Assembly: GCA_947164955.1 (NCBI GenBank)
Contig: CAMUYT010000001.1
Coordinates: 1-53,600, forward strand
From: an uncultured Bacteroidales bacterium
GTDB taxonomy: Bacteria; Bacteroidota; Bacteroidia; Bacteroidales; F082
Direction of reading: 5' to 3'
Length of the DNA stretch: 53,600 nt
This document shows positions 9,113-46,729 of the stretch, one piece after another. The first letter of the stretch is position 1; every line of letters begins with the position of its first letter. Under the pieces are notes generated by a model. The model searched no databases. It saw only the letters and a list, made by a program, of their open reading frames with translations, and was not told the DNA's origin. Made by a program: the position numbers and the translations under genes.

Positions 9113-10954
9113 ATGATTCATGTTTTGCTCTTCGTGTTGTGTTTTGTGGGTCATGACAACCTGATTGATGACCACGCTGACCCCGATTCCGTCAAGGTGG
9201 AGCTCATCCGTTATCTGGAAGAGGACGACTTCGACAAGACGGTGGGGTATGCCAAGGCGGCCGTGGAGTACTACCGCAGCCGCAACGACCTCATGGACGT
9301 GGCAGGCTGCTACATGACCTTGGGCAACGCTTACCAACGTATGGGGCAATACGAGGAGGCCATCCGCAACTACAACCTTTGCAGCGAAACGATGGACCAA
9401 ATTGGTGGCCCGATGGCTAAGGTCAACAAACGGTATGTGCTCAACAACATGGCTGTGATGTACCTCGAAATGGGGGAATACGACCAGGCCGAGTCAATGT
9501 GGAACCGGTGTATCGCCTCGGTCAATGACGACGACCCAGGATTTTTGCTGCAATACAACCAAGACTCGCTGCGTTGCCTCGATTTGGCCACCTACTACCA
9601 AAACCTCGCCGAGGTGCGTTTGGCGCAAGCCGACAACGATGAGCCAAGGCAACAGGAAAAGATCGGCGAGGCCATCCGCTTTTTGGAGCAGTCGCTCGAC
9701 TATTCGGAACGCTATGGCGCCGAACCCAACAAGATTGTCGGTCGGTTGACGGGTTTGGCGAAGGCTTATTTCGAGGCAGGCCGCACCGACGACGCCAACC
9801 ATAACTTGGATGCCGCGTTGCAGCTGGCCACCACTCTTGACGACCCCTATATGCTCGCTGCCATCCACTTGCTGAAAGGCGATGTGAAGCTGAAACTTGG
9901 CCAGAACGAAAACGCAGAAAGAGCGTATCTTGACGCACTCTCTTTGGCCCAGGAGAACCATTTCGGCGAGTTCGAGATGGAGGCACTGAACGGTGCCTAC
10001 GAATGCACCAAAGACAGCCAACCCAAACGGGCTTTGGCCTACTTCACCCAAAACGTCGCCCTCAAAGACTCCATTTACAATAAAGAGCAACAAGCCCTCA
10101 TCCGCGACTTCGAGGTGCAATACAAGATGGAGGAGAAGGAGCATGAATTGACCTTGCAACGTGAGAAAAACCGCCAAGGCAAACGTTTGCTGGCGTTGTC
10201 GGCGACAGTGGCTCTCTTGCTGTTGGTGTTGTTGGGCGTCGTGCTGGTCGTTTTGCGTCAGCGCAAACGGCGCAACGCCCTGAAGGACCATTTGCTTTTT
10301 GTCGTTGTACACGATATCAAGACGCCGGTGCAGACGCAATCCCAGTTGCTTGAGATGACCCATGAACACATCGACGAGATGACCATGCCCGAAATGAAGG
10401 AGAACCTGCAAGCCCTGAAAGTTTCGGCCGACGACCTGAACGAGAAGCTGCAAAACATCATCTATTGGGTGAAATGCGAGATGGGCAAGGCCGAAAACCC
10501 GCCCAAACGCTTCGTGTTACGTGACTTGGCAGACGAGGTGGTTGGCGAAATGACTTCGCATATCCAGATGAAGTCGTTGACCGTTGTCAACACGATTCCG
10601 GCCGAATGGGCGTGCCTCGACGATGACAATATCGTGAGGATGGTGCTGCAAAATCTCTTGTCTAATGCGGTGAAATTCTCGTGGCCCAACGGCGAGGTCA
10701 AGATCAGTGCCAACGAAGCATCAGGGAGCTATTGGGTTGCAGTGAGCGACAAGGGTATGGGCATCCCGAAGGACAAGCTGCAACGATTGTTCAATGATGT
10801 GGTCACCAACAGCGACGGCACCATTGGGGAGATGGGTACGGGCATCGGCCTCTTCGTCACCAAGCAATTAATGGAACGCAATGGCGGCAAGGTAAAGTTG
10901 GAAAGCGAAGAGGGACGAGGCACCACAGTTAGTTTCACTGTCAAAAAAGCGTAA
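9113..10954 (+). CDS. TPR-repeat sensor histidine kinase
   Basis: N-terminal hydrophobic segment, TPR-like repeats (e.g. YMTLGNAYQRMGQYEEAIRNY), TM segment LLALSATVALLLLVLLGVVLVVL, H-box FVVVHDIKTP, and HATPase motif GTGIGLFVTKQLMERNGG. The ATG at 9113 is chosen because the track start (9089, TTG) overlaps the TATTTTTG -7 box at 9084-9091. Confidence 0.85.
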   Translation: MIHVLLFVLCFVGHDNLIDDHADPDSVKVELIRYLEEDDFDKTVGYAKAAVEYYRSRNDLMDVAGCYMTLGNAYQRMGQYEEAIRNYNLCSETMDQIGGPMAKVNKRYVLNNMAVMYLEMGEYDQAESMWNRCIASVNDDDPGFLLQYNQDSLRCLDLATYYQNLAEVRLAQADNDEPRQQEKIGEAIRFLEQSLDYSERYGAEPNKIVGRLTGLAKAYFEAGRTDDANHNLDAALQLATTLDDPYMLAAIHLLKGDVKLKLGQNENAERAYLDALSLAQENHFGEFEMEALNGAYECTKDSQPKRALAYFTQNVALKDSIYNKEQQALIRDFEVQYKMEEKEHELTLQREKNRQGKRLLALSATVALLLLVLLGVVLVVLRQRKRRNALKDHLLFVVVHDIKTPVQTQSQLLEMTHEHIDEMTMPEMKENLQALKVSADDLNEKLQNIIYWVKCEMGKAENPPKRFVLRDLADEVVGEMTSHIQMKSLTVVNTIPAEWACLDDDNIVRMVLQNLLSNAVKFSWPNGEVKISANEASGSYWVAVSDKGMGIPKDKLQRLFNDVVTNSDGTIGEMGTGIGLFVTKQLMERNGGKVKLESEEGRGTTVSFTVKKA

Positions 10955-34948: not shown

Positions 34949-37900
34949 ATGGAACTGATTGATAACGTCACCAAGACGCTGCGCGATGACTTAACCGTGG
35001 AGATTAAGTCGGCAAGCAAGATTTCAATGGCTGCTTGCTGTTTCTCTATCTATGCCTTTCAGGAGCTGAAGGAGCAACTCAAAGACATCAAGGAGTTGAG
35101 GTTTATCTTCACTTCGCCCACGTTTACTGCCGAGAGAATCGACAAGCAAAGGCGTGAGTTCTACATCCCGCGCATCGACCGTGAACGCACCCTTTACGGC
35201 TCTCCCTTCGAAGTCCGCCTCCGAAACCAACTCACACAAAAAGCCATCGCTATCGAGTGCGCCGAGTGGGTCAAAAAGAAAGTCCGTTTCAAGTCAAACA
35301 TCACGAATAACACCCTCCCAGGATTCATCATTGTCGAAAACGACGACGCGCATACCTATACGCCTGTAAACGGCTTCACTACAACCGACTTAGGCTGTGA
35401 GCGCGGCAACAGCATGATGAACTTCGTCAACAAGGTGGATGGCTCAAACGCCCGTCAGTATCTCCGTGTGTTCAACGAGCTTTGGAACAACGACAAAGAC
35501 TTTGCCGATGTCACTGACGACATCATCGATCATATTTCCAACATCTATCGCGAGAACTCCCCGGAGTTCATTTATTTCGTTACCCTCTACAACATCTTCA
35601 ACGAGTTTCTTGAAGATATTTCCGAGGATGTTCTTCCCAATGAGGCCACTGGTTTCAAGGACAGCCAAATCTGGAACAAGCTCTACGACTTCCAAAAAGA
35701 CGCAGCCTTGGCCATTATCAACAAATTAGAGAAATACAACGGCTGCATCCTTGCCGACAGTGTGGGTCTGGGTAAGACCTTCACCGCACTGGCCGTCATC
35801 AAATACTACGAGACGCGAAACAAGAATGTCCTGGTGCTCTGTCCCAAGAAACTTTGCGACAACTGGATGACCTATCGCAACAACTACATCACCAATCCCA
35901 TCGCTGGTGATAGGCTTGCATACACCGTGCTTTTCCATTCCGACCTTTCGCGAGAAAGTGGCAAATCCAACGGCAACGACCTCGACAAAATCAACTGGGG
36001 CAATTTTGACTTGGTTGTGATTGACGAGTCGCATAACTTTCGCAACGGTGGCAAGCTTTCAAGGGATGATGATGACGACAACCCACGTGAGAACCGTTAC
36101 TTGCGCCTGATGAACAAGGTGATTCGTGCTGGCGTGAAAACCAAGGTGCTGATGCTCTCGGCCACACCTGTCAACAACCGCTTCAACGACCTCAAAAACC
36201 AGCTGCAACTGGCCTACGAGGGCGATACCAAGCGGATGGACGCACTGCTCAACACCAACACTTCAATTGACGACATCTTCCGCCAAGCGCAGAAGGCTTA
36301 CAACATCTGGGCAAAACTCCCCAACGAAAAACGCAACACCGAAAGGCTCCTTGGGATGCTCAGCTTCGATTTCTTCGAGGTGCTCGATTCGGTCACTATC
36401 GCCCGAAGCCGCAAGCACATCGAGGCGTATTACAACACCGAAGCCGTCGGCAAGTTCCCGCTTAGGCTTCCGCCTATCTCGCGTCGTCCGTCGCTCACCG
36501 ACCTTCCGTCGGCCATCAACTACAACGAAATTTTCAACCAGCTCCAAAAGCTCAACCTGGCCATCTACACACCTTCTGAGTTTATCTTGCCCAGCAAGAT
36601 GTCAAAGTATGCCCTCGACCCTGAGACACACGGCGCAGGACTTTCCTTGGTAGGCCGTGAAATGGGTATCCGTCGCATCATGTGCATCTTAATGCTGAAG
36701 CGTCTCGAAAGCTCCGTCAATTCTTTCCGGCTAACACTGACCCGTTTGCTGAAGCTCATTTCCAACACCATCGATACGATTGACCGCCATGAAGCTTATA
36801 TCAATGTGGAAGAGGTTGATGATTACGATTTTGATATTGAAGACTCCGACAACGATGCCTTTGTGGGCACCAAGAAAAACAGGATTGCCTTGGAAGACAT
36901 CGACTATATCAGCTGGCGGCAATACCTCCAGAGCGACAAGGAAGAGCTGGAGCTTACCCGCTTGATGCTCGACGACATCACCCCTGAGCACGACAGCAAG
37001 CTTCAGCAGCTCATTGCCGACCTTCGCGACAAGTTCGCTCATCCCATCAACGGCGAGAACAAGAAGGTGCTCATCTTTACAGCCTTCTCCGATACAGCCG
37101 TTTATCTCTACGACAACCTGGCCAAACCCATCAAACAGAAATACGGGATGGACACCGCTTTGGTCACAGGCGACGTGGACGCGCGTAGCACTTTGAAGTT
37201 GAAGGAAAAACTCGACTTCAACAAAGTGCTGACCCTCTTTTCGCCCATATCCAAGGAAAAAGAGTCCATCTATCCCAATATCCATGAGGAGATAGAAGTC
37301 CTCATCGCCACCGACTGCATTTCCGAAGGTCAGAACTTGCAGGATTGCGACTACCTCATCAACTACGACATCCACTGGAACCCCGTGCGCATCATCCAGC
37401 GCTTCGGTCGTATCGACCGTATCGGCTCCAAAAACGATGTCATCCAGCTGGTGAACTACTGGCCCGACATGACGCTTGACGAGTACATCGACCTCAAAGG
37501 CCGCGTTGAAGCTCGTATGAAGGTCTCTGTGCTCACCTCCACAGGCGACGACAATCCTATTTCTCCCGAAGAGAAAGGTGATTTGGAATACCGCAAGGCT
37601 CAACTGAAGAAGCTTCAGGAAGAAGTCGTCGACATCGAGGAGATGAATAACGGCGTTTCCATCATGGATCTTGGCCTCAACGAGTTCCGCCTTGACCTGC
37701 TGGAATATATGAAGACCCACGAGGATGTGGAGCATACGCCCTTCGGCCTCCACGCTGTTGTCGGCCACAACGAGTTCACCGAGCCAGGTGTCATCTTTGT
37801 GCTGAAGAACCGCAATAAAGGTGTCAACATCGACAAAAAGAACCGTCTGCATCCCTTCTATATCGTTTACCTTCGCAACGACGGCTCAGTGGTGGTCAAC

Positions 37901-38182
37901 CACCTATCGCCCAAGGAGCTGCTCGACAAATTCCGCAGCCTCTGCAAGGGAAAGAACATGCCTCAAACCGCTTTGTGTCGTGAGTTCAACAAGGAAACTC
38001 GTGACGGCTTCAAGATGGCACACTACTCCAAGCTGCTGGGCGATGCCATCAACAGCATCATCACTGTGAAGGAAAACAGCGACATCGACAGTTTCCTTGA
38101 AGGCGCTCAAGGCGAGCTGTTCACCAAGGAAATCAAAGGACTTGATGATTTCGAGCTGATATGTTTCTTGGTTGTAAAATAG
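34949..38182 (+). CDS. SNF2-family helicase with a ~190-aa non-helicase N-terminal domain (possibly degenerate PLD-like)
   Basis: Motif I LADSVGLGKTFTALAV, motif II LVVIDESHNFRN, motif III LMLSATPVNNRFNDL, and the C-terminal lobe LIATDCISEGQNLQDCDYLINYDIHWNPVRIIQRFGRIDRIGS. Confidence 0.9.
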   Translation: MELIDNVTKTLRDDLTVEIKSASKISMAACCFSIYAFQELKEQLKDIKELRFIFTSPTFTAERIDKQRREFYIPRIDRERTLYGSPFEVRLRNQLTQKAIAIECAEWVKKKVRFKSNITNNTLPGFIIVENDDAHTYTPVNGFTTTDLGCERGNSMMNFVNKVDGSNARQYLRVFNELWNNDKDFADVTDDIIDHISNIYRENSPEFIYFVTLYNIFNEFLEDISEDVLPNEATGFKDSQIWNKLYDFQKDAALAIINKLEKYNGCILADSVGLGKTFTALAVIKYYETRNKNVLVLCPKKLCDNWMTYRNNYITNPIAGDRLAYTVLFHSDLSRESGKSNGNDLDKINWGNFDLVVIDESHNFRNGGKLSRDDDDDNPRENRYLRLMNKVIRAGVKTKVLMLSATPVNNRFNDLKNQLQLAYEGDTKRMDALLNTNTSIDDIFRQAQKAYNIWAKLPNEKRNTERLLGMLSFDFFEVLDSVTIARSRKHIEAYYNTEAVGKFPLRLPPISRRPSLTDLPSAINYNEIFNQLQKLNLAIYTPSEFILPSKMSKYALDPETHGAGLSLVGREMGIRRIMCILMLKRLESSVNSFRLTLTRLLKLISNTIDTIDRHEAYINVEEVDDYDFDIEDSDNDAFVGTKKNRIALEDIDYISWRQYLQSDKEELELTRLMLDDITPEHDSKLQQLIADLRDKFAHPINGENKKVLIFTAFSDTAVYLYDNLAKPIKQKYGMDTALVTGDVDARSTLKLKEKLDFNKVLTLFSPISKEKESIYPNIHEEIEVLIATDCISEGQNLQDCDYLINYDIHWNPVRIIQRFGRIDRIGSKNDVIQLVNYWPDMTLDEYIDLKGRVEARMKVSVLTSTGDDNPISPEEKGDLEYRKAQLKKLQEEVVDIEEMNNGVSIMDLGLNEFRLDLLEYMKTHEDVEHTPFGLHAVVGHNEFTEPGVIFVLKNRNKGVNIDKKNRLHPFYIVYLRNDGSVVVNHLSPKELLDKFRSLCKGKNMPQTALCREFNKETRDGFKMAHYSKLLGDAINSIITVKENSDIDSFLEGAQGELFTKEIKGLDDFELICFLVVK

Positions 38183-38191
38183 GAGGTGTGT

Positions 38192-38791
38192 ATGCTCGGA
38201 TTGCCCAAAAGTACAGAAATAGCGAAGCAACTTCCCAAGAAGGCCATCTACGAGAAGTTCCAGCTGAAGTCTGCCCAGCGCGACCGCTTCGATTCCGATA
38301 TCAGCCGTATTGACATCGTGAATGTTGTTTCGCCCGACACGGTGCCAGGCTTGAAGGAAGGCGAGCATGTCAAGGAGTTTTATGTGTTGCTTGTCTCGCT
38401 GAAGCAAGAGCTGTATGACGAGAAAAACATCTTGCTTCTGTCAAAGTTAATCAAGCAGCACATGGTTTTTGCCTTGGTGTTTGAGGATATGTTGCGTTTC
38501 GCCGTGGTGCACGACAAACTCTTTTCCACTGACTGGGAACCGCTTGCCGATGCTGCGCTGCCCCTGATGGGTATTGACATGGACAAGGTATGGGAGCACA
38601 TAGTAACGACCATCGGAGGCTTCGAGGTGATGGAAGGCGTGACGATCGAGGAACAGATAACGATTGATGGAGAGAGGCTGAAAGTCATCAAGAAAATTGA
38701 AACGCTTGAAAAGAAAGTACGTTTAGAAAAACAGCCCAGAAGAAAACTGGAAATGTTCGAGGAACTACAAGAATTGAAAAAACAACTATGA
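38192..38791 (+). CDS. DUF4391-like protein
   Basis: MLGLPKSTEIAKQLPKKAIYEKFQLKSAQRDRF...EFYVLLVSLK matches my recollection of DUF4391 proteins found between helicase and methylase genes. The ATG at 38192 is preceded by AGGAGG at 38181-38186. The track start GTG at 38186 is an alternative. Confidence 0.65.
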   Translation: MLGLPKSTEIAKQLPKKAIYEKFQLKSAQRDRFDSDISRIDIVNVVSPDTVPGLKEGEHVKEFYVLLVSLKQELYDEKNILLLSKLIKQHMVFALVFEDMLRFAVVHDKLFSTDWEPLADAALPLMGIDMDKVWEHIVTTIGGFEVMEGVTIEEQITIDGERLKVIKKIETLEKKVRLEKQPRRKLEMFEELQELKKQL

Positions 38792-38792
38792 T

Positions 38793-39101
38793 ATGGAAAA
38801 AGTCCAACTGTCTAAGGAAGAAAAAAGAATACTAAAAGAAATAGCATCGAAAAAATACTCTAGCTCTACGCCTAAAAAAGATGTTGGAGTGATTAAACTC
38901 CTTGCGGTAAAGGATTTCATCCGAACAACAGATACTTTTGATGGTACGATTGTGATTGGCTTATCAGATTACGGAAAAGCATATCTTGAAGAAAACCCTA
39001 AACTTCATAATCCTAGCATATTCGACGACAAAAAATATATCATAAATACAATCATTTCACTTGTAGCCCTTACAGTGGCTATAATAGCATTATTCAAATA
39101 G
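38793..39101 (+). CDS. Small C-terminally membrane-anchored protein (102 aa), unknown function
   Basis: MEKVQLSKEEKRILKEIASKKY... with a C-terminal TM helix IINTIISLVALTVAIIALF. It is very AT-rich: 18/60 G+C in my hand count of 38801-38860. It lies 1 nt after DUF4391 and 3 nt before mod. Confidence 0.6.
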   Translation: MEKVQLSKEEKRILKEIASKKYSSSTPKKDVGVIKLLAVKDFIRTTDTFDGTIVIGLSDYGKAYLEENPKLHNPSIFDDKKYIINTIISLVALTVAIIALFK

Positions 39102-39104
39102 ACT

Positions 39105-40970
39105 ATGGAAAAACTCAACCTCCAAACCCACAACATCGTGGACGAAAACATAAAGAAAATTGCCGAACTATTTCCCAACTGCCTCACCGAGCGGCTGAAC
39201 GAGAAGGGGCAGCCCGAAGCGGCCATCGACTTCGACATGCTCCGCCAGGAGCTGTCGAAAGACATCGTGGAAGGCCCCACGGAACGCTACCAGTTCACCT
39301 GGCCCGACAAGCGCAACGCCATCCGGCTGGCCAACGCACCCACCACCGACACGCTGCGCCCCTGCCGTGAGGAAAGCGTGGACTTCGACAACACGCAAAA
39401 CCTCTATATCGAGGGCGACAACCTCGAAGTGCTGAAACTGCTCCGCGAGAACTACCTCGGCAAGGTGAAGATGATCTACATCGACCCGCCCTACAACACG
39501 GGCAACGACTTCGTATATAACGATGACTTTGACCAGGACAAGCAGGAGTATGTTCACAACAGCGGGCAGTACGATGAGGAGGGCAAACAGTTGGTAACCA
39601 ACACCGAAAGCAACGGACGTTTCCACACCGATTGGCTCAATATGATTTATCCACGACTGAAAGTGGCTAAGGACTTGTTGAGCGAGGATGGAGTGATTTT
39701 TATTTCGATAGATGATAATGAGCAAGAAAACTTGAAGAAGGTTTGTGATGAAGTGTTTGGTTCTCGGAATTTCATTGCTGAATTGGTTTGGGAACGGGCC
39801 TATGCTCCAAAGAACGATGCTCGATTTGTCTCTAACAGCCACGATTATATTTTGATGTTCGCTAAAAATATTGATGTTTTCGTGATAGGCAGGCTTGATA
39901 GGACAGAAGAAGCAAATGCAAGGTATTCAAATCCTGATAATGACCCACGCGGAGTGTGGAAGCCGAGTGATATTTCGGTAAAAACATATAACGCAGCTTG
40001 CGATTATCCCATAACGACGCCCTCCGGGCGTATAGTAGAGCCTCCAGCAGGGCGCTGCTGGAGTCTCTCTAAAAACTCGTTTTTAGAGAGACTCCAGGAC
40101 AACCGAATTTGGTTCGGTCCAAATGGTGATAGTGTTCCTTCAATGAAAAGGTTTTTATCAGAGTTGAAGTTTGATGGCATGGCACCGACCTCGATTTTGT
40201 TCTATAAAGAAGTTGGGCACAGTCAAGAGGGCGCAAAGGAAGTCGTATCATTGTTTGGCGATAAAGGCGTTTTTGATGGACCAAAACCTGTGCGTTTGCT
40301 CGAAAGACTTCTGACTTTAGCCAATTTATATGACGACTCAATTGTCCTCGATTTCTTTTCTGGAAGTGCCACAACCGCTCATGCTGTGATGAAACGGAAT
40401 GCTGAAAAAGACATGAATCTGAAATACATCCTCGTTCAATTACCCGAAAAAGTCAGTGAAAAGAAAAAAGACCAAGGCTTTTCCACCATTTGCGAAATCG
40501 GCAAGGAGCGCATCCGTCGTGCGGGCAAGAAGATCAAGGAGGAATCACCGTTAACCACACAGAATTTGGATACAGGCTTCCGTGTACTGAAGTTAGACTC
40601 CAGCAATATGCAGGATGTCTATTACCGCCCGGAGGACTCAACGGAGCAGACCCTGTTTGAGGACAACATCAAGCCCGACCGCTCGTCGGAGGACTTGCTC
40701 TTCCAAGTGATGCTGGAGTGCAACCTGCCGCTGTCCGCCAAAATCGAAACCGAGAAGATAGCCGGCAAGGAAGTGTTCTCCGTCAACGAGGGCTACCTCA
40801 TCGCCTGCTTCGACGAAAAGGTGAACGAGGACGTCATCAAGGAAGTGGCCAAACGCCAGCCCTATTACTTCGTCATGCGCGACAGCAGTATGGCCTCAGA
40901 TAATGTTGCAGACAATTTTGAACAAATCTTCCAAGCTTATAGCAAAGACACTATCAGAAGGGTTTTGTAA
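39105..40970 (+). CDS. mod: Type III R-M methyltransferase (Mod), N6-adenine beta-class
   Basis: Motif IV IYIDPPYNTGNDFVYNDDF lies upstream of motif I LDFFSGSATTAHAVM, which is the IV-TRD-I order. FISIDDNEQENL and FDGPKPVRLLERLL are also present. Confidence 0.9.
   Translation: MEKLNLQTHNIVDENIKKIAELFPNCLTERLNEKGQPEAAIDFDMLRQELSKDIVEGPTERYQFTWPDKRNAIRLANAPTTDTLRPCREESVDFDNTQNLYIEGDNLEVLKLLRENYLGKVKMIYIDPPYNTGNDFVYNDDFDQDKQEYVHNSGQYDEEGKQLVTNTESNGRFHTDWLNMIYPRLKVAKDLLSEDGVIFISIDDNEQENLKKVCDEVFGSRNFIAELVWERAYAPKNDARFVSNSHDYILMFAKNIDVFVIGRLDRTEEANARYSNPDNDPRGVWKPSDISVKTYNAACDYPITTPSGRIVEPPAGRCWSLSKNSFLERLQDNRIWFGPNGDSVPSMKRFLSELKFDGMAPTSILFYKEVGHSQEGAKEVVSLFGDKGVFDGPKPVRLLERLLTLANLYDDSIVLDFFSGSATTAHAVMKRNAEKDMNLKYILVQLPEKVSEKKKDQGFSTICEIGKERIRRAGKKIKEESPLTTQNLDTGFRVLKLDSSNMQDVYYRPEDSTEQTLFEDNIKPDRSSEDLLFQVMLECNLPLSAKIETEKIAGKEVFSVNEGYLIACFDEKVNEDVIKEVAKRQPYYFVMRDSSMASDNVADNFEQIFQAYSKDTIRRVL
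40058..40097. repeat. Perfect inverted repeat inside mod: CTGGAGTCTCTCTAAAAA-CTCG-TTTTTAGAGAGACTCCAG
   Basis: 18-bp arms and a 4-nt loop, verified base by base. It encodes CWSLSKNSFLERLQ in the mod frame. Confidence 0.95.
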
Positions 40971-42011
40971 ATGATGAAATTCAGTACCATAGAAGATTTG
41001 CAATCGTTGATTGACAACGAAATTGAGGAGTCCACTGAGTTGGAGTATAAAAGTACCTTTGTCAAGCAAAAACCAAATTGGAAGGAAGAATTGGCTAAGG
41101 ATGTCAGTGCTATGGCAAATGCAAATGGCGGGGTAATTGTCTTTGGAATTGCACAAAAAGAGTGCAATGGCCACTCAATTCCTGAAAAACTCACACCCAT
41201 ACCTAATACATTGATGTCAAAGGATAGTCTTTCTCAGTTATTATCCTCCAATATACAACCCGTTATTGAGAATTTAGAAATCTCGTTTATTCCATTCAAT
41301 GCAGAAACAGGTTTTTTTGTAATAGAAGTGCCACAAGGAATCACCGCGCATCAAAATAGATTGAGCCATTTGTATCATAGACGCAGGAATGCTACTATCG
41401 AACCAATGGAAGATTATGAAATCCGTGATGTGATGAACAGAAGCAAGCATCCTGTGATGGCTATCGAATTTGAGTTGCATAAAACAACAACTCATATCAT
41501 CGAAAAGCCTTTGAAAATAGCTGTGATGTATGACAAGCGTGAAGACAAACATACTATAGAAACCAAATACGAACTTAAATACAGGTTGTTGAATAAAGGA
41601 ACAGTGTACGCTAAATACATTAATTTCTTTATCCATGTTCCTTTAATCTTGAATCCAAATAAAGAAAAAGAACCTGAAGGGGTCGATAGGCTAAAGAAGT
41701 GTTTCGTTATTTCTGGCGACAATACTACAAGAGATATTACGTCTGTCAGGGGTCTTAGCAAAGAATATGGTCCTGCAAGATATGACCCAATTTTGCCAGG
41801 CACATTTGGCTGGTGGAAAAGTTTTGAATTGAGTTTTGATGACGTGGACGAATCCATTACCTTACCGCCTATTTGGTATTCCGTATTAGCCGACAATGCT
41901 CCCGAACGAAAAATGATTGTTGATTGGAATGACATTAAACTTTTTGAAAAAACAGAAACTATAACTAGAGATCTTAATAATATTGGATTTAATTCGATGC
42001 TTTATCAATAG
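40971..42011 (+). CDS. AlbA_2 (Schlafen-core-like) domain protein with an unknown C-terminal domain
   Basis: ESTELEYKSTF...LAKDVSAMANANGGVIVFGI is the hallmark of the AlbA_2/divergent-AAA family. It starts immediately after the mod stop. It is AT-rich: 19/60 G+C in 41221-41280. Confidence 0.7.
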   Translation: MMKFSTIEDLQSLIDNEIEESTELEYKSTFVKQKPNWKEELAKDVSAMANANGGVIVFGIAQKECNGHSIPEKLTPIPNTLMSKDSLSQLLSSNIQPVIENLEISFIPFNAETGFFVIEVPQGITAHQNRLSHLYHRRRNATIEPMEDYEIRDVMNRSKHPVMAIEFELHKTTTHIIEKPLKIAVMYDKREDKHTIETKYELKYRLLNKGTVYAKYINFFIHVPLILNPNKEKEPEGVDRLKKCFVISGDNTTRDITSVRGLSKEYGPARYDPILPGTFGWWKSFELSFDDVDESITLPPIWYSVLADNAPERKMIVDWNDIKLFEKTETITRDLNNIGFNSMLYQ

Positions 42012-42017
42012 TATACA

Positions 42018-42119
42018 ATGAAGTTCAAATTCAAAATACATCAACATCAGTCCAATTCGTCTGAAAGTGCCTCATCGTCGCTATCAAATTTAGTATCTTT
42101 GCCCTATGAAAACGATTGA
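42018..42119 (+). pseudogene. Relic of the res 5' end (33-codon ORF MKFKFKIHQHQSNSSESA...)
   Basis: 43 of the first 54 nt are identical to the true res start at 43691, and 12 of 18 aa match (MKFKFKIQQYQSDAVEST). The ORF then decays and stops at 42117-42119, overlapping the next gene out of frame. Confidence 0.75.
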
Positions 42120-43701
42120 CTATTATTTGAATCAGCCCGAAGGGCAGACCTACGACAAGAAAAGCGGTCGTATCGAGCCAAAGGCATTGGCGGTCACCAT
42201 GGTGGCTATGGCCAACGCCGATGGCGGAACCATTGCCGTCGGCATTGAGGATGACGGCACCGTCAGCGGCATCGACGGAATGACCGAGCACATCAACGAC
42301 TTGCTGCGTGTGCCGTTCGACTATTGCATCCCTTCGGTTAATATCCACCCTCAACGCATCCCCTGCACCGACAAGGACGGAAAGGACAACCACATCCTCA
42401 TTCTGGAGGTGGAGCAGAGCAGCGCCATGCACGCCACTTCTTCCGATGAGGCCTACTATCGTGTTGGCGACAAATCCAAGAAACTCTCCTTCGACGACCG
42501 TATGCAAATCATGCTGGCGAAAGGGGTGCAGTATTATGAAGATTACCCCGTTGCAAGAGCCACGGTTGATGATTTGGATTTTGACTTTGTTTCGAAGTAT
42601 TGCGAGAGGATTGGTTACAAGAAAGATGCGTTGACTTTTCTTCGCACCAACGGGGATTATATCCTGAACAAAGACGGCAAGGAACAAGTCAGTGGCGCTG
42701 CCATACTGTTGTTCGGAAAAGATCCACAGCGCTTTTTCCAACGTGCTTGGGTGCGTTTCATCCGCTATGATGGAACGGAAGAGAAAGTGGGGCGCGAGAT
42801 GAATGTCATCAAGGATGTCATCTTCAAGGGTCGTATCTTGGATATGACACGCGATGCCATCGCTTTCGTCAAGACACAAATCAAGGAACACACTTATTTG
42901 GGGCCCGAAGCACGTTTTGTGACAGAGGTGGAGTATCCCGAGTTTTGTTGGACCGAGCTGATTGTTAATGCCATAGCCCACCGCGATTACTCGATTCTGG
43001 GAACGGACATCCAAATCAAAATGTTCGACGACCACTACACGGTCGAAAGTCCTGGCATCTTGCCCGGGCGTGTCCGTATCAACAACATGCGAACCACCCA
43101 CTTCTCCCGCAACCCTAAGATTGCGGCTTTCATGAAAGAATATGAGTTCATCCGTGAGTTTGGTGAGGGTGTTGACCGTATGTATCGCGAACTGGAAGAA
43201 GGCGGATGGGAAAAACCTGTTTTCAAGCAGGATGACTTTATTCTTCGGGCATCACTCAAGTCAAGATTTAACACTGAGGGTTTACAGAAAGATTCAAACA
43301 AACAAACTGGAAGCCAAATAGATGACACAGATACTTTACAGAAAACTTTACAGAACAATCCAAATTCGATCCAAATCAACACTCAATACGTCACAAGCCT
43401 GTCCCAAGTCCTGTCCCAAGTTGTCCCCAGCTCGTCCCCAGCTTGTCCCCAGCTTAAAGACAGTCATTTTTCAATGATGGCCATGGTTATGTTGCAGCTG
43501 CATTCCCAACAATACTCAATATCTGAACTTATGAACGCTATTGGGGAAAAGAACAAGAACAGATTCCGCCAGTTTGTGTTAAGGCCTCTGATAAACATTG
43601 GCTTGGTTGAAGCTACCATCAAAGACGTTCCCAATAGTCCAAAACAACGTTATGCCCTTACGGGAAAAGGTAAAGAATTGATGAAGCCCTATGAAATTTA
43701 A
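42106..43701 (+). CDS. AlbA_2 + HATPase_c_4 (RecG-C-terminal-like) + wHTH protein, usually annotated as ATP-binding protein / putative transcriptional regulator
   Basis: AlbA_2: LAVTMVAMANADGGTIAVGIEDDGTVSGI. HATPase_c_4-like: ELIVNAIAHRDYSILGTDIQIKMFDDHYTVESPGILPG...FSRNPKIAAFM...EFGEGVDRMY. C-terminal PNSPKQRYALTGKG. It overlaps the res start by 11 nt. Confidence 0.8.
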   Translation: MKTIDYYLNQPEGQTYDKKSGRIEPKALAVTMVAMANADGGTIAVGIEDDGTVSGIDGMTEHINDLLRVPFDYCIPSVNIHPQRIPCTDKDGKDNHILILEVEQSSAMHATSSDEAYYRVGDKSKKLSFDDRMQIMLAKGVQYYEDYPVARATVDDLDFDFVSKYCERIGYKKDALTFLRTNGDYILNKDGKEQVSGAAILLFGKDPQRFFQRAWVRFIRYDGTEEKVGREMNVIKDVIFKGRILDMTRDAIAFVKTQIKEHTYLGPEARFVTEVEYPEFCWTELIVNAIAHRDYSILGTDIQIKMFDDHYTVESPGILPGRVRINNMRTTHFSRNPKIAAFMKEYEFIREFGEGVDRMYRELEEGGWEKPVFKQDDFILRASLKSRFNTEGLQKDSNKQTGSQIDDTDTLQKTLQNNPNSIQINTQYVTSLSQVLSQVVPSSSPACPQLKDSHFSMMAMVMLQLHSQQYSISELMNAIGEKNKNRFRQFVLRPLINIGLVEATIKDVPNSPKQRYALTGKGKELMKPYEI

Positions 43702-46700
43702 ATTCAAAATACAGCAATATCAGTCCGATGCGGTCGAAAGCACCGTTTCGGTTTTTGCGGGTCAGCCCTCGCGCGATGCTTTCCAATTTAGAAGAGACCT
43801 GGGCAAGCGCAAGTCTCAGCAGAAAATGGAATTCGAAGACGAATTTGTGGGCTACCGCAACAGCGACATCGAGCTGAGCGACCAACAGCTGCTCGACAAC
43901 ATCTGCAAGATTCAAGATGGTCAGGACATCAAGCAGTCGCCTAAGCTCGTCAGTGATTTAGGTCGTCTCGGGTTGGACATCGAAATGGAAACAGGCACGG
44001 GCAAGACCTACGTCTATATCAAGACCATGTTTGAGCTGAACAAACGCTACGGCTGGAACAAGTTCATCGTGGTGGTGCCGTCCATCGCTATCCGCGAAGG
44101 TGTCAACAAGAGCTTCACCATGCTCGAAGACCACTTTATGGAGCATTACGGAAAAAAAGCCCGTTTCTTCATCTACAACTCATCCAACCTCCAGCAACTG
44201 GATTCTTACTCCAGCGATGCAGGCATCAACGTGATGATCATCAACACGCAGGCCTTCGCCAAGGATTTGAATGAAGACAAGAAGACCAAGGCGGGCTTGG
44301 TAATCTACTCTGAGCGCGATGACTTCGGCAGTCGAAAGCCCATCGATGTGATTGCCGCCAACCGTCCTATCATCATCATGGACGAGCCTCAGAAGATGGA
44401 AGGCCAGGCCACCCAAAAAGCCCTGCGTCGCTTCAACCCGCTCTTTGTGCTCTATTACTCCGCCACCCACAAAACCCAACATAACTGCATCTATGCTCTC
44501 GACGCGCTGGATGCCTTCAAGCAGAAACTGGTCAAGAAGATTCAGGTGAAAGGCTTTGAAGTGAAGAACCTCAAAGGCACCAGCTCCTACCTCTATCTCG
44601 ACGACATCATCCTTTCCAAGAACCAGCCCCCAATGGTGCGCCTCGAAATGGAAGTGGAGACCAACTCAGGCGTGAAGAAAATCATGAAGAAATTTGGTGT
44701 AACTGACAATCTCTACCATGAATCCCATCTTTTGGAATACAAGGACTTCACCATTTCCGACATCGATGCTTTCCACAATACCGTCACTTTCCTCAACGGT
44801 GTGAAGATTGCCAAGGGCGAAGTGTATGGCGACAGCAGCGAAGAAGCCATGCAGCGCGTCCAAATCCGCGAAACCATTGCCTCGCATTTCGAGAAGGAAC
44901 GCGACTTGTTCAAACGGGGCATCAAAACCCTGTCGTTGTTTTTCATCGACGAAGTGGCCCACTACAAGAGCTACAACAGTGAAGGCGAAGAGGTGCATGG
45001 CCCGTTCTGGAAAATCTTCGAAGAGGAATATACCCGGATATTGAACGAAAACCTTTCCTTGTTTGAGGATGATTACCAAAAGTATCTCCTACAGTTCGAT
45101 GCCTCGCAAGTCCACAACGGCTATTTCTCCATCGACAAGAAAGGCCACGCGGTCAACAGCTCCACGGGGCGCGGCACCGACATTTCCGATGACATTTCGG
45201 CCTACGACCTCATACTGAAGAACAAAGAACGGCTGTTAAGCTTCGACGAACCAACCCGCTTCATCTTCTCACACTCCGCCCTTCGCGAAGGCTGGGACAA
45301 TCCCAACGTGTTCCAGATTTGCACCCTCCGCCATGCCGCCTCCGCCATTGCCAAACGTCAGGAAGTTGGGCGAGGCCTCCGCATCTGTGTTGACCAACAA
45401 GGCAACCGCATGGACTTGGAAGAGCTGGGTGATGAAATGGTACACGACATCAACAAGCTCACCGTCATCGCCAACGAAAGCTACAAGACTTTCGTGGCCG
45501 ACCTACAACGCGAGACCAAGGATGCCCTTCGTGAACGTCCCAACAAGGCCACTCCAGAGTATTTCCAAGGCAAGATGATCACTTTGGAGGGCGAGAAATA
45601 CACCTTGAACGCTCAGGATGCAATAGCTATCTGTGGCTGGCTGGCAGGGAACGATTATTCCGACGTGAACTACCAAATCACACAGACCTTTAAGGACGAC
45701 TTGCAGAACGGAACGCTGGAGCCAATGGGCAAGAAATTGGCCGGAAAGGAAGAACAAATCATCACGCTCATCAAAGCCCTCTTCGACGACAGCATCTCCA
45801 TCGAGGATATGATAGAGGACGGCAACGCATCAGCCGCAGCCACCAACCGCCTCAATGAGAACTTCAAAAAGAAAGAGTTCCAAGCCTTGTGGAATGAGAT
45901 TAACCACAAGTACGTCTATACCGTCCACTACGACAGCAACGAGCTGATAGAAAAGGCGGTTAACGCCATCAACGCCGAGCTGATGGTCACCGAATTGAAG
46001 TATGTGATGACCATTGGCGACCAAGAATCTGTTGACACCTTTGGTGATACCAAAACCACCACCCAGAAGTTGGGGACGGTAAGCACTTCCTCGGTGAAAT
46101 ACGACTTGGTGGGCGAGGTGGCCAAGCGCACCACGCTCACCCGTCGCACGACGGCCACCATCCTGAAGAAGATACGCCCCAGCAAGTTAGCCATGTTCCG
46201 CAACAATCCCGAGGAGTTCATCAAGAACGTGAGCCGTATCATCCGCAACGAGAAAGCCACCATGATTGTGGAACATATCCAATACGACCGCATCGACCAG
46301 ACCTACGACAGCGAAATTTTCACCCAAGAAAAACATTCGCAGAACGTGTCCAAATCATATTCCTCGAAGAAACACATCATGGACTACGTTTTCACCGACT
46401 CCGACGGAGAACGCACCTTCGCCGAGGATTTGGATGCCGCCACCGAAGTATGTGTCTATGCCAAGTTGCCGCGTTCCTTCCAAATCCCCACACCCGTAGG
46501 CAACTACGCCCCCGACTGGGCCATCGCCTTTAATCAGGGCGCGGTGAAGCACATCTTCTTCATCGCAGAAACCAAAGGCTCAATGGACTCAATGCAACTG
46601 AAGAAAGTGGAAGAGGCAAAGATTGGTTGTGCCGAAAAGTTGTTCAACAACCTTTCCACTTCCAATGTCCGTTACCACAAGGTGGATAGTTACCAGACCA

Positions 46701-46729
46701 TGCTGGATATAATGAAATCGATGGATTAA
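43691..46729 (+). CDS. res: Type III restriction enzyme Res subunit (helicase-nuclease)
   Basis: N-terminus MKFKFKIQQYQSDAV, Walker A METGTGKTYVYIKT, DEAH-like IIIMDEPQ, YSATH, REGWDNPNVFQI, and a C-terminal PD-(D/E)xK-like region YAPDWAIAF...FFIAETKGS. Confidence 0.9.
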   Translation: MKFKFKIQQYQSDAVESTVSVFAGQPSRDAFQFRRDLGKRKSQQKMEFEDEFVGYRNSDIELSDQQLLDNICKIQDGQDIKQSPKLVSDLGRLGLDIEMETGTGKTYVYIKTMFELNKRYGWNKFIVVVPSIAIREGVNKSFTMLEDHFMEHYGKKARFFIYNSSNLQQLDSYSSDAGINVMIINTQAFAKDLNEDKKTKAGLVIYSERDDFGSRKPIDVIAANRPIIIMDEPQKMEGQATQKALRRFNPLFVLYYSATHKTQHNCIYALDALDAFKQKLVKKIQVKGFEVKNLKGTSSYLYLDDIILSKNQPPMVRLEMEVETNSGVKKIMKKFGVTDNLYHESHLLEYKDFTISDIDAFHNTVTFLNGVKIAKGEVYGDSSEEAMQRVQIRETIASHFEKERDLFKRGIKTLSLFFIDEVAHYKSYNSEGEEVHGPFWKIFEEEYTRILNENLSLFEDDYQKYLLQFDASQVHNGYFSIDKKGHAVNSSTGRGTDISDDISAYDLILKNKERLLSFDEPTRFIFSHSALREGWDNPNVFQICTLRHAASAIAKRQEVGRGLRICVDQQGNRMDLEELGDEMVHDINKLTVIANESYKTFVADLQRETKDALRERPNKATPEYFQGKMITLEGEKYTLNAQDAIAICGWLAGNDYSDVNYQITQTFKDDLQNGTLEPMGKKLAGKEEQIITLIKALFDDSISIEDMIEDGNASAAATNRLNENFKKKEFQALWNEINHKYVYTVHYDSNELIEKAVNAINAELMVTELKYVMTIGDQESVDTFGDTKTTTQKLGTVSTSSVKYDLVGEVAKRTTLTRRTTATILKKIRPSKLAMFRNNPEEFIKNVSRIIRNEKATMIVEHIQYDRIDQTYDSEIFTQEKHSQNVSKSYSSKKHIMDYVFTDSDGERTFAEDLDAATEVCVYAKLPRSFQIPTPVGNYAPDWAIAFNQGAVKHIFFIAETKGSMDSMQLKKVEEAKIGCAEKLFNNLSTSNVRYHKVDSYQTMLDIMKSMD

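Follow-up and report, generated by a model that had tools for sequence, protein, structure and literature searches.

The sequence at 42018-42071 (+ strand) is quite probably a decaying stub of the 5' end of the Type III restriction gene res, left by a recombination event that was half homologous and half illegitimate, in a slot between mod and res that serves as a site of cassette exchange. The stretch of DNA analysed, hereafter the window, comprises 53,600 nucleotides from an uncultured Bacteroidales bacterium. Duplication of the res start, its recurrence in relatives, the breakpoints, the tracts of identity between loci and the joints to mod tails were all directly observed. The original prediction had proposed serial insertions, or recombination between related operons, at the conserved res 5' end, making the junction a cassette hotspot. 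The comparison of related loci supported this proposal, because the slot holds zero to three genes, stubs recur with independent breakpoints, stubs occur in series, and tracts of near identity end after res nucleotide (nt) 60.

The stub lies within an operon of tightly spaced genes, all co-directional (+). The first gene encodes a SNF2-type helicase (34949..38182; Pfam Helicase_C, SNF2-rel_dom and ResIII; PADLOC HKD+Snf2, E 1.5e-124), followed by its conserved partner in related loci, a DUF4391 protein (38186..38791; Pfam DUF4391, E 1.5e-29). A small ORF of 102 aa (38793..39101), which returned no match in Pfam or PADLOC, precedes the gene for the Type III Mod methyltransferase (39105..40970; Pfam N6_N4_Mtase, E 2.6e-34; PADLOC MTase_III, E 1.2e-237). 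Cassette 1, an AlbA_2 (Schlafen-core) gene designated AlbA_2 #1 (40971..42011; Pfam SLFN_AlbA_2), comes next; homologues with a native N-terminus occupy the same slot in genomes G081 and G125. It is followed by the stub, by a 34-nt spacer (42072..42105) and by cassette 2, the AlbA2 gene (42106..43701), whose product carries AlbA_2, HATPase_c_4 and Fic-like_C (winged helix) domains according to Pfam. Res, a helicase and endonuclease, is encoded at 43691..46729 (Pfam ResIII, DEAD and RE_endonuc; PADLOC REase_III, E 3.6e-296). Both proteins typical of a Type III restriction-modification (R-M) system are thus present, Mod with an N6/N4 methyltransferase domain and Res with a superfamily-2 helicase and a C-terminal endonuclease domain; their genes are not adjacent, being separated by 2.7 kb that hold two genes and the stub. 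The window sequence was found in sheep gut and rumen metagenomes from ten studies. The linker of AlbA2 contains an exact tandem 12-mer (43398-43421) and further proline/serine-rich repeats, and the AlbA2 homologues in genomes G171 and G174 are about 50 residues shorter. A 43-nt match (72%) between the two AlbA_2 genes (41109-41151 and 42205-42247) is a conserved core motif of the AlbA_2 domain and no recombination scar.

As originally noticed, the relic beginning at 42018 copies the res start, 43 of 54 nt being identical between 42018-42071 and 43691-43744. A repeat finder returned 42018-42067 and 43691-43740 (41/50) as the top direct repeat of the region, and the next-best 50-nt match in the whole window reached 26/50 on the + strand and 28/50 on the - strand. 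Both sequences are A-rich and both begin with Met-Lys, so that the similarity could be a chance likeness of two A-rich N-termini, an objection already raised with the original prediction, or else the product of a chimeric assembly. We built a null distribution from the organism's own 2.39-Mb genome, using ORF starts as well as all positions on both strands. The best of 3640 ORF starts matched at 28/54, the 415 ORF starts with Met-Lys averaged 18.9 ± 3.4 of 54, and, of about 4.8 million positions on the two strands, none exceeded 31/54, against 43/54 for the stub. The likeness is therefore not due to chance. The identical junction was present in at least six other assemblies. Contigs from three other public studies run from AlbA_2 #1 through the relic into the start of AlbA2 without a single difference, so the junction is not an assembly chimera. 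The probability that the stub arose by chance or by misassembly is negligible.

Two further elements of the original prediction concerned shorter similarities. A third copy of the res start had been placed at 40974, from the second codon of AlbA_2 #1 onward. The letters are present there, but they belong to the native N-terminus of AlbA_2 #1 and do not rise above chance: its homologues in two other loci begin Met-Lys-Ile-Arg-Thr-Ile, and only their first six bases are in common with res. We therefore rejected this third copy. An 11-mer had also been reported at 42101-42111, across the AlbA2 start codon, and at 43686-43696, across the res start codon (both + strand). The repeat search found it at both places; it is only marginally non-random, and a causal role cannot be shown for it. 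Six of its bases are the Met-Lys start itself, and two Met-Lys starts would agree in their five upstream bases with a chance of 0.0034 per pair. In G021, the nearest relative, 9 of the 11 bases are kept, and in a third lineage (G174) just the six-base start is left. A tally of exact 11-mer pairs (13, where 1.95 were expected) was discarded, as it was inflated by words within the relic and by the tandem 12-mer. The generalization that each inserted gene begins on a copy of the start region of the gene it displaced proved incorrect, AlbA_2 #1 beginning on its own N-terminus directly 3' of the mod stop and AlbA2 using its own ATG, 88 nt 3' of the ATG of the stub. At the other end of mod, the small ORF and mod have 10 identical bases over their start codons, or about 16/21 when the match is extended (38792-38812 and 39104-39124); this repeat could be a very short mod-5' stub, like the res stub, or could be due to chance.

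We fetched and oriented 35 related loci and read the contents of the gap between mod and res. This comparison of homologous operons by the number of inserts, which had been suggested with the original prediction, revealed 0, 1, 2 or 3 genes in the gap, four loci having none. The cargo belongs to at least 13 families, almost all of defence type: AlbA_2 with or without HATPase_c_4, AbiJ, TPR, Fic with HTH, Abi_C, YhcG/DUF1016, pentapeptide, RhuM, GmrSD_N, AAA_15/21, AAA_14-DUF4143, SIR2+HerA and DUF2971. The interval from DUF4391 to mod (38186-39105 in the window) is a second variable slot, whose variation was seen in loci L034, L039, L043, L049, L052-L056, L061 and L062. Its cargo includes a TIR-domain protein, a DUF4365-like protein, several unknowns, and pairs of an AAA_21/AAA_15 ATPase with a RloB-like protein, which fall into three sequence families; the 102-aa ORF is its sole occupant in the window. 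The operon genes scanned, conserved or variable and in either slot, included no recombinase or integrase (tyrosine recombinase). The gene with AlbA_2 and HATPase_c_4 domains is the last one before an intact res in seven loci (the window, L034, L031, L055, L061, L042 and L064), and in G174 (locus L196) a second AlbA_2-type gene and another stub separate AlbA2 from res. This position may reflect a functional tie to Res or a bias in arrival.

Stubs of the res 5' end recur in relatives. A search with the Res protein in 61 related genomes gave short Res N-terminal matches upstream of full res genes. Of 150 genomes of the genus, 34 had a match to a degenerate pattern of the res start, and seven of these 34 carried two same-strand res starts on one contig, 1130-1912 nt apart; the reversed pattern, used as a control on the same 150 genomes, gave 0 matches. 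In a cross-taxon scan of contigs, stubs accounted for 10 of 109 determinable res-start matches, a figure in which double copies are undercounted as the scan returns fixed 8-kb blocks. Altogether, stubs were present in at least 10 genomes and formed at least eight distinct res-5' junctions among relatives. Many Bacteroidales of gut and rumen carry the same res start, and the exact pattern was also matched in contigs assigned by binning to Akkermansia, Fibrobacter, Sphaerochaetaceae, Anaeroplasmataceae, Clostridia/Oscillospiraceae and Methanomethylophilaceae (L077-L195); these matches outside the phylum represent either cross-phylum transfer of the operon or errors of binning.

Breakpoints were called by aligning each extra res start to the consensus. 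In type A, res nt 1-54 are followed by a 34-35-nt spacer and AlbA2; this junction is found in the window, G021, G174, G073 and three metagenome contigs, AlbA2 being absent from G073. Type B comprises res nt 1-66 followed by a different AlbA_2/HATPase_c_4 gene (G036, G141, G002 and G174), type D comprises res nt 1-50 followed by a TPR gene (G144), type E breaks at res nt ~60 before a third AlbA_2-type gene (G158), and type H comprises res nt 1-117 before another AlbA2 relative (G176). Four of the five insertion-type classes (A, B, E and H) lie in front of a gene of the AlbA_2+HATPase_c_4 kind, which, like the position of such genes before res, may reflect a functional tie to Res or a bias in arrival. 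Other stubs, ending at res nt ~41, 63, 104 and ~180, look like truncations since no res follows them. In the four junctions after which a gene and then an intact res are found, the break lies at res nt 50-66, a span of 17 nt, and this clustering could reflect selection that keeps the translation start region and avoids a long Res fragment. Stubs also stack: G174 has, in order, a mod remnant, Abi_C, stub A, AlbA2, stub B and the next AlbA_2 gene, i.e. two stubs in one locus. The unit of stub A and AlbA2 sits behind AlbA_2 #1, behind an AbiJ-like gene with TPR, behind Abi_C or behind a pentapeptide gene, and the type B unit sits behind AbiJ, TPR, Fic or AlbA2. The cassette of Fic with HTH recurs in L032 (G015), L060 (G156), L057 (G147) and L033 (G002), where it is accompanied by res stubs or a broken res rather than by a complete R-M system; a unit of mod tail, Fic and res start seems to persist or to move on its own.

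Both partners of a joint could be named in two cases only. In G144 (type D), res nt 50 is followed by the last 17 nt of mod and by the 19-nt mod-TPR spacer, as found in loci with the TPR gene directly behind mod, and about 4 nt are common to the two sides where res nt 50 meets mod position -17. In G015, the reading frame of res nt 1-114 continues into the last ~255 nt of mod, the point of fusion being an Asp-Leu-Gly motif common to both proteins. These joints of a res 5' end to a mod 3' end match, in their sequence, the product expected of unequal or one-sided recombination between two copies of the operon. For the type-A spacer, a short-word blastn against about 200 fetched loci returned only the type-A loci and chance matches of 17-18 nt, and its similarity to mod-tail sequence was unconvincing. 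The AlbA2 copy of G171 was considered as a single-insert parent and rejected, its upstream region being unrelated and without a stub. A comparison of L031 with L038, meant to tell which res-5' copy is the native one, gave 62/66 against 61/66 and did not discriminate. Degenerate mod genes were seen in L196 (G174), where just the first 90 and last 42 codons remain (10407-10740), in L031, which has an internal deletion of 19 codons near the C-terminus, and in L044, where mod is split in two (717-2315). The presence of a degenerate mod in several loci indicates that cassettes can outlive the R-M enzyme.

The right border of exchange was examined from the conservation of 31 res genes, measured in 30-nt bins. 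Mean pairwise identity was 0.92 and 0.81 in the two bins of res nt 1-60; at third codon positions it was 0.76 and 0.63 there, as against about 0.47 in nt 61-300, and the stretch just past this 60-nt island (43691..43750, + strand, in the window) is the most diverged part of res. The island is a candidate right homology arm and recombination border; its synonymous conservation could instead stem from a constraint on translation initiation. On the left, the last ~400 nt of mod are 70-84% conserved between loci, and its central target-recognition part is not conserved. The Fic cassette is 99.4-100% identical in four species, and pairs of loci with this cassette are 97-100% identical over res nt 1-60, 90-95% over the mod 3' end and 89-96% over res nt 61-1400. 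The AbiJ cassette shows the same step in identity. As these near-identical cassette tracts stop after res nt 60, recent exchange ends where the stub junctions lie. The centre of mod (39640-40480 in the window, the presumed target-recognition region) is 40-63% identical between loci with 90-99% flanks (L031/L038 and the Fic pairs), which implies that swapping of specificity accompanies swapping of cassettes.

The pathway of recombination, and the direction in which the original event ran, are our inference from these sequences. In the mod-res slot of the SNF2 helicase-DUF4391-Mod-Res operon, defence-type genes would be swapped between operon variants by homologous recombination, with the conserved last ~400 nt of mod as the left arm and the 60-nt island at the res start as the right arm. 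Since res is strongly diverged past the island, exchange tracts would stop there. Occasionally the event would be sealed without homology at or near the island border, to a mod tail or to the leader of another cassette, and such an illegitimate seal would leave a res stub before the next gene, so that a gene is added and not replaced. The stub, the gene and the res start would then form a module with flanking direct repeats that could move as a whole behind other upstream cassettes.

An integron-like site-specific system with its attachment site in the first 60 nt of res could account for breakpoints that fall within a 17-nt span and for the same modules appearing in many contexts. However, taken over all stubs, the junctions fall at res nt 41, 50, 54, ~60, 63, 66, 104, 114, 117 and ~180 and not at one position, the partner sequences are unrelated to one another, and no integrase or recombinase occurs among the conserved or variable operon genes examined; such a system is very unlikely. 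A different proposal, which we hold tentatively, is that the first ~60 nt of res and the stubs act as a portable attachment sequence without a recombinase, making the operon an integron-like platform for the capture of defence genes. Any gene behind a stub might then, equally tentatively, be a repeat-flanked module that ordinary homologous recombination can drop before any res bearing the island. If so, the platform would be common to gut and rumen Bacteroidales and apparently to other phyla, and the traffic would maintain the synonymous conservation of the island.

The history of AlbA2 in the window was traced with a metagenome scan for the type-A spacer, which yielded four more loci (L200-L203). 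In L200, a pentapeptide gene and stub A lie between mod and AlbA2. The AlbA2 of the window is 98.6% identical to that of L200 and 94% identical to that of G021. The spacer is common to all type-A loci, including the allele without AlbA2: in G073 and the metagenome locus L202, a strongly decayed stub A and the spacer are followed directly by res. Comparison with this allele shows that the segment present with AlbA2 and absent without it has its limits at the two start codons or no more than about 7 nt from them, and it is these limits that make the position of the 11-mer meaningful. As stub and AlbA2 are separable in G073, the event that formed stub A may differ from the event that brought AlbA2. 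One possible order, which we consider rather unlikely, is that the arrangement of stub, spacer and res seen in G073 and L202 was ancestral, and that AlbA2 was later inserted at or just 5' of the res start, or lost there, through a direct repeat over the start codons (11 nt in the window). DNA homology between the AlbA2 genes of the window and G171 starts at the ATG, which agrees with this order, as do the low chance of five common upstream bases and the similar 10-bp repeat originally noticed at the starts of the small ORF and mod with its 16/21 extension. Yet only 9 nt of the repeat remain in G021, and in G174 nothing beyond the six-base start, and the six bases before the res ATG of G073 differ from the end of the spacer in AlbA2-bearing alleles. 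Moreover, the stub of G073 has derived changes in common with that of the AlbA2-bearing L200, so that a secondary deletion of AlbA2 from G073 appears somewhat more likely than a late insertion. A contig joining 42106 to 43691, as expected of an AlbA2 deletion, was absent from the contigs of four metagenome runs, a result with no weight either way because contigs drop rare variants. Contigs of two other metagenomes start exactly at the start codon of the stub (42017-42019), a hint of branching in the assembly graph where different upstream cassettes co-occur; several low-confidence contig joints or ends at 42017-42019 were too short to interpret.

The window stub appears to be a scar that no longer encodes anything under selection and that changes at a roughly neutral rate. 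Its res-derived part differs by about 26-28% between alleles, compared to 13% at third positions of AlbA2, which fits neutral decay and argues against a conserved peptide. A relic ORF of 33 codons (42018..42119, + strand) runs by translation from the stub ATG to a stop 14 nt inside AlbA2. Selection on this ORF could not be established, the substitutions being too few and the retention of the open frame being compatible with chance. The ORF would have a different meaning if the stub were kept as a functional translation start region, coupled to the stop of the upstream gene, with the short ORF relaying ribosomes to a leaderless inserted gene. The ATG and an open frame are indeed kept in 5/5 AlbA2-bearing type-A alleles, and even with a 1-nt indel in the spacer the frame closes at -1 to +14 relative to the AlbA2 start; in every insertion-type stub, the stop of the ORF falls in a range that extends from 34 nt upstream of the next start codon to 14 nt inside it. 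Immediately ahead of the AlbA2 ATG, 24 nt show 0 substitutions and one 1-nt indel between alleles that are 13% apart at third positions, and the start region is predicted to be unpaired. Against this, the stub peptide is not conserved and its DNA decays in a near-neutral manner, an open frame of 30 codons is estimated to survive this number of substitutions by chance with a probability of about 0.2, and the start codon is GTG in one stub and lost in G073. The folding z-scores around the stub and the res start, +0.53 and -0.74, were not significant either, and nothing significant was detected in RNA structure there. Such a relay is improbable, and the reading of the stub as a scar is preferred.

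Accessory genes in R-M loci, as exemplified by PrrC, and scars of serial displacement in toxin loci are already known. The route by which defence genes enter restriction operons is rarely documented, and the stubs offer a readable record of it: the scars show where exchange tracts end, additions at the edge of the 60-nt island, movement of modules and their serial stacking. They point to a testable route for the building of defence islands without a recombinase. They also provide a rule for finding new defence candidates, which should be sought between mod and res and behind res stubs, and a warning for annotation, as short ORFs copying the Res N-terminus are scars. The widespread SNF2-DUF4391-Mod-Res operon with its two variable slots is a natural platform for the study of cassette exchange in gut and rumen bacteria. 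The literature covered, which was incomplete, held no description of res-5' stubs or of the island as an exchange border in Type III operons, and, among the papers listed for DUF4391, the titles and abstracts held nothing on this operon.

Defence-type genes are known from other restriction loci, among them the restriction-linked 'rlo' ORFs in Campylobacter type I loci. The gene for PrrC lies inside the Type IC EcoprrI locus (PMC12707154). The likeness to the present operon lies in the placement of defence-type genes between R-M subunit genes, and RloB-like proteins with AAA_21 occur in the second slot of this family. However, the PrrC and rlo loci are of Type I and have been described for their content rather than for a mechanism of accretion, and no description of scars of the flanking subunit gene in them was found in the literature searched.

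[quoted passage not shown] 2017, PMC5361080). The 'orphan' C-terminal modules of Rhs and CDI loci are, as cited in PMC5361080, a related case. In both the arrays and the operon studied here, a conserved stretch beside the variable module provides a homology anchor (here res nt 1-60 and the 3' 400 nt of mod), modules are mostly replaced by homologous recombination but are now and then added by less frequent one-sided events, with serial remnants as the result, and the modules spread by horizontal transfer. The scaffold here is a Type III R-M operon, whereas theirs is a toxin delivery locus; the remnant here is the 5' end of the downstream conserved gene, in contrast to the 3' end of the upstream gene in the arrays. 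The anchor here is also just ~60 nt long, and the cargo consists of unrelated defence genes rather than toxin-immunity pairs. With integron cassettes, the operon has in common promoterless single-gene cassettes stacked at one position before a fixed element. It differs from integrons in having no integrase among the operon genes scanned, no precise attachment site and variable junctions. Judged by these sequences, the process looks RecA-type plus illegitimate and not site-specific.
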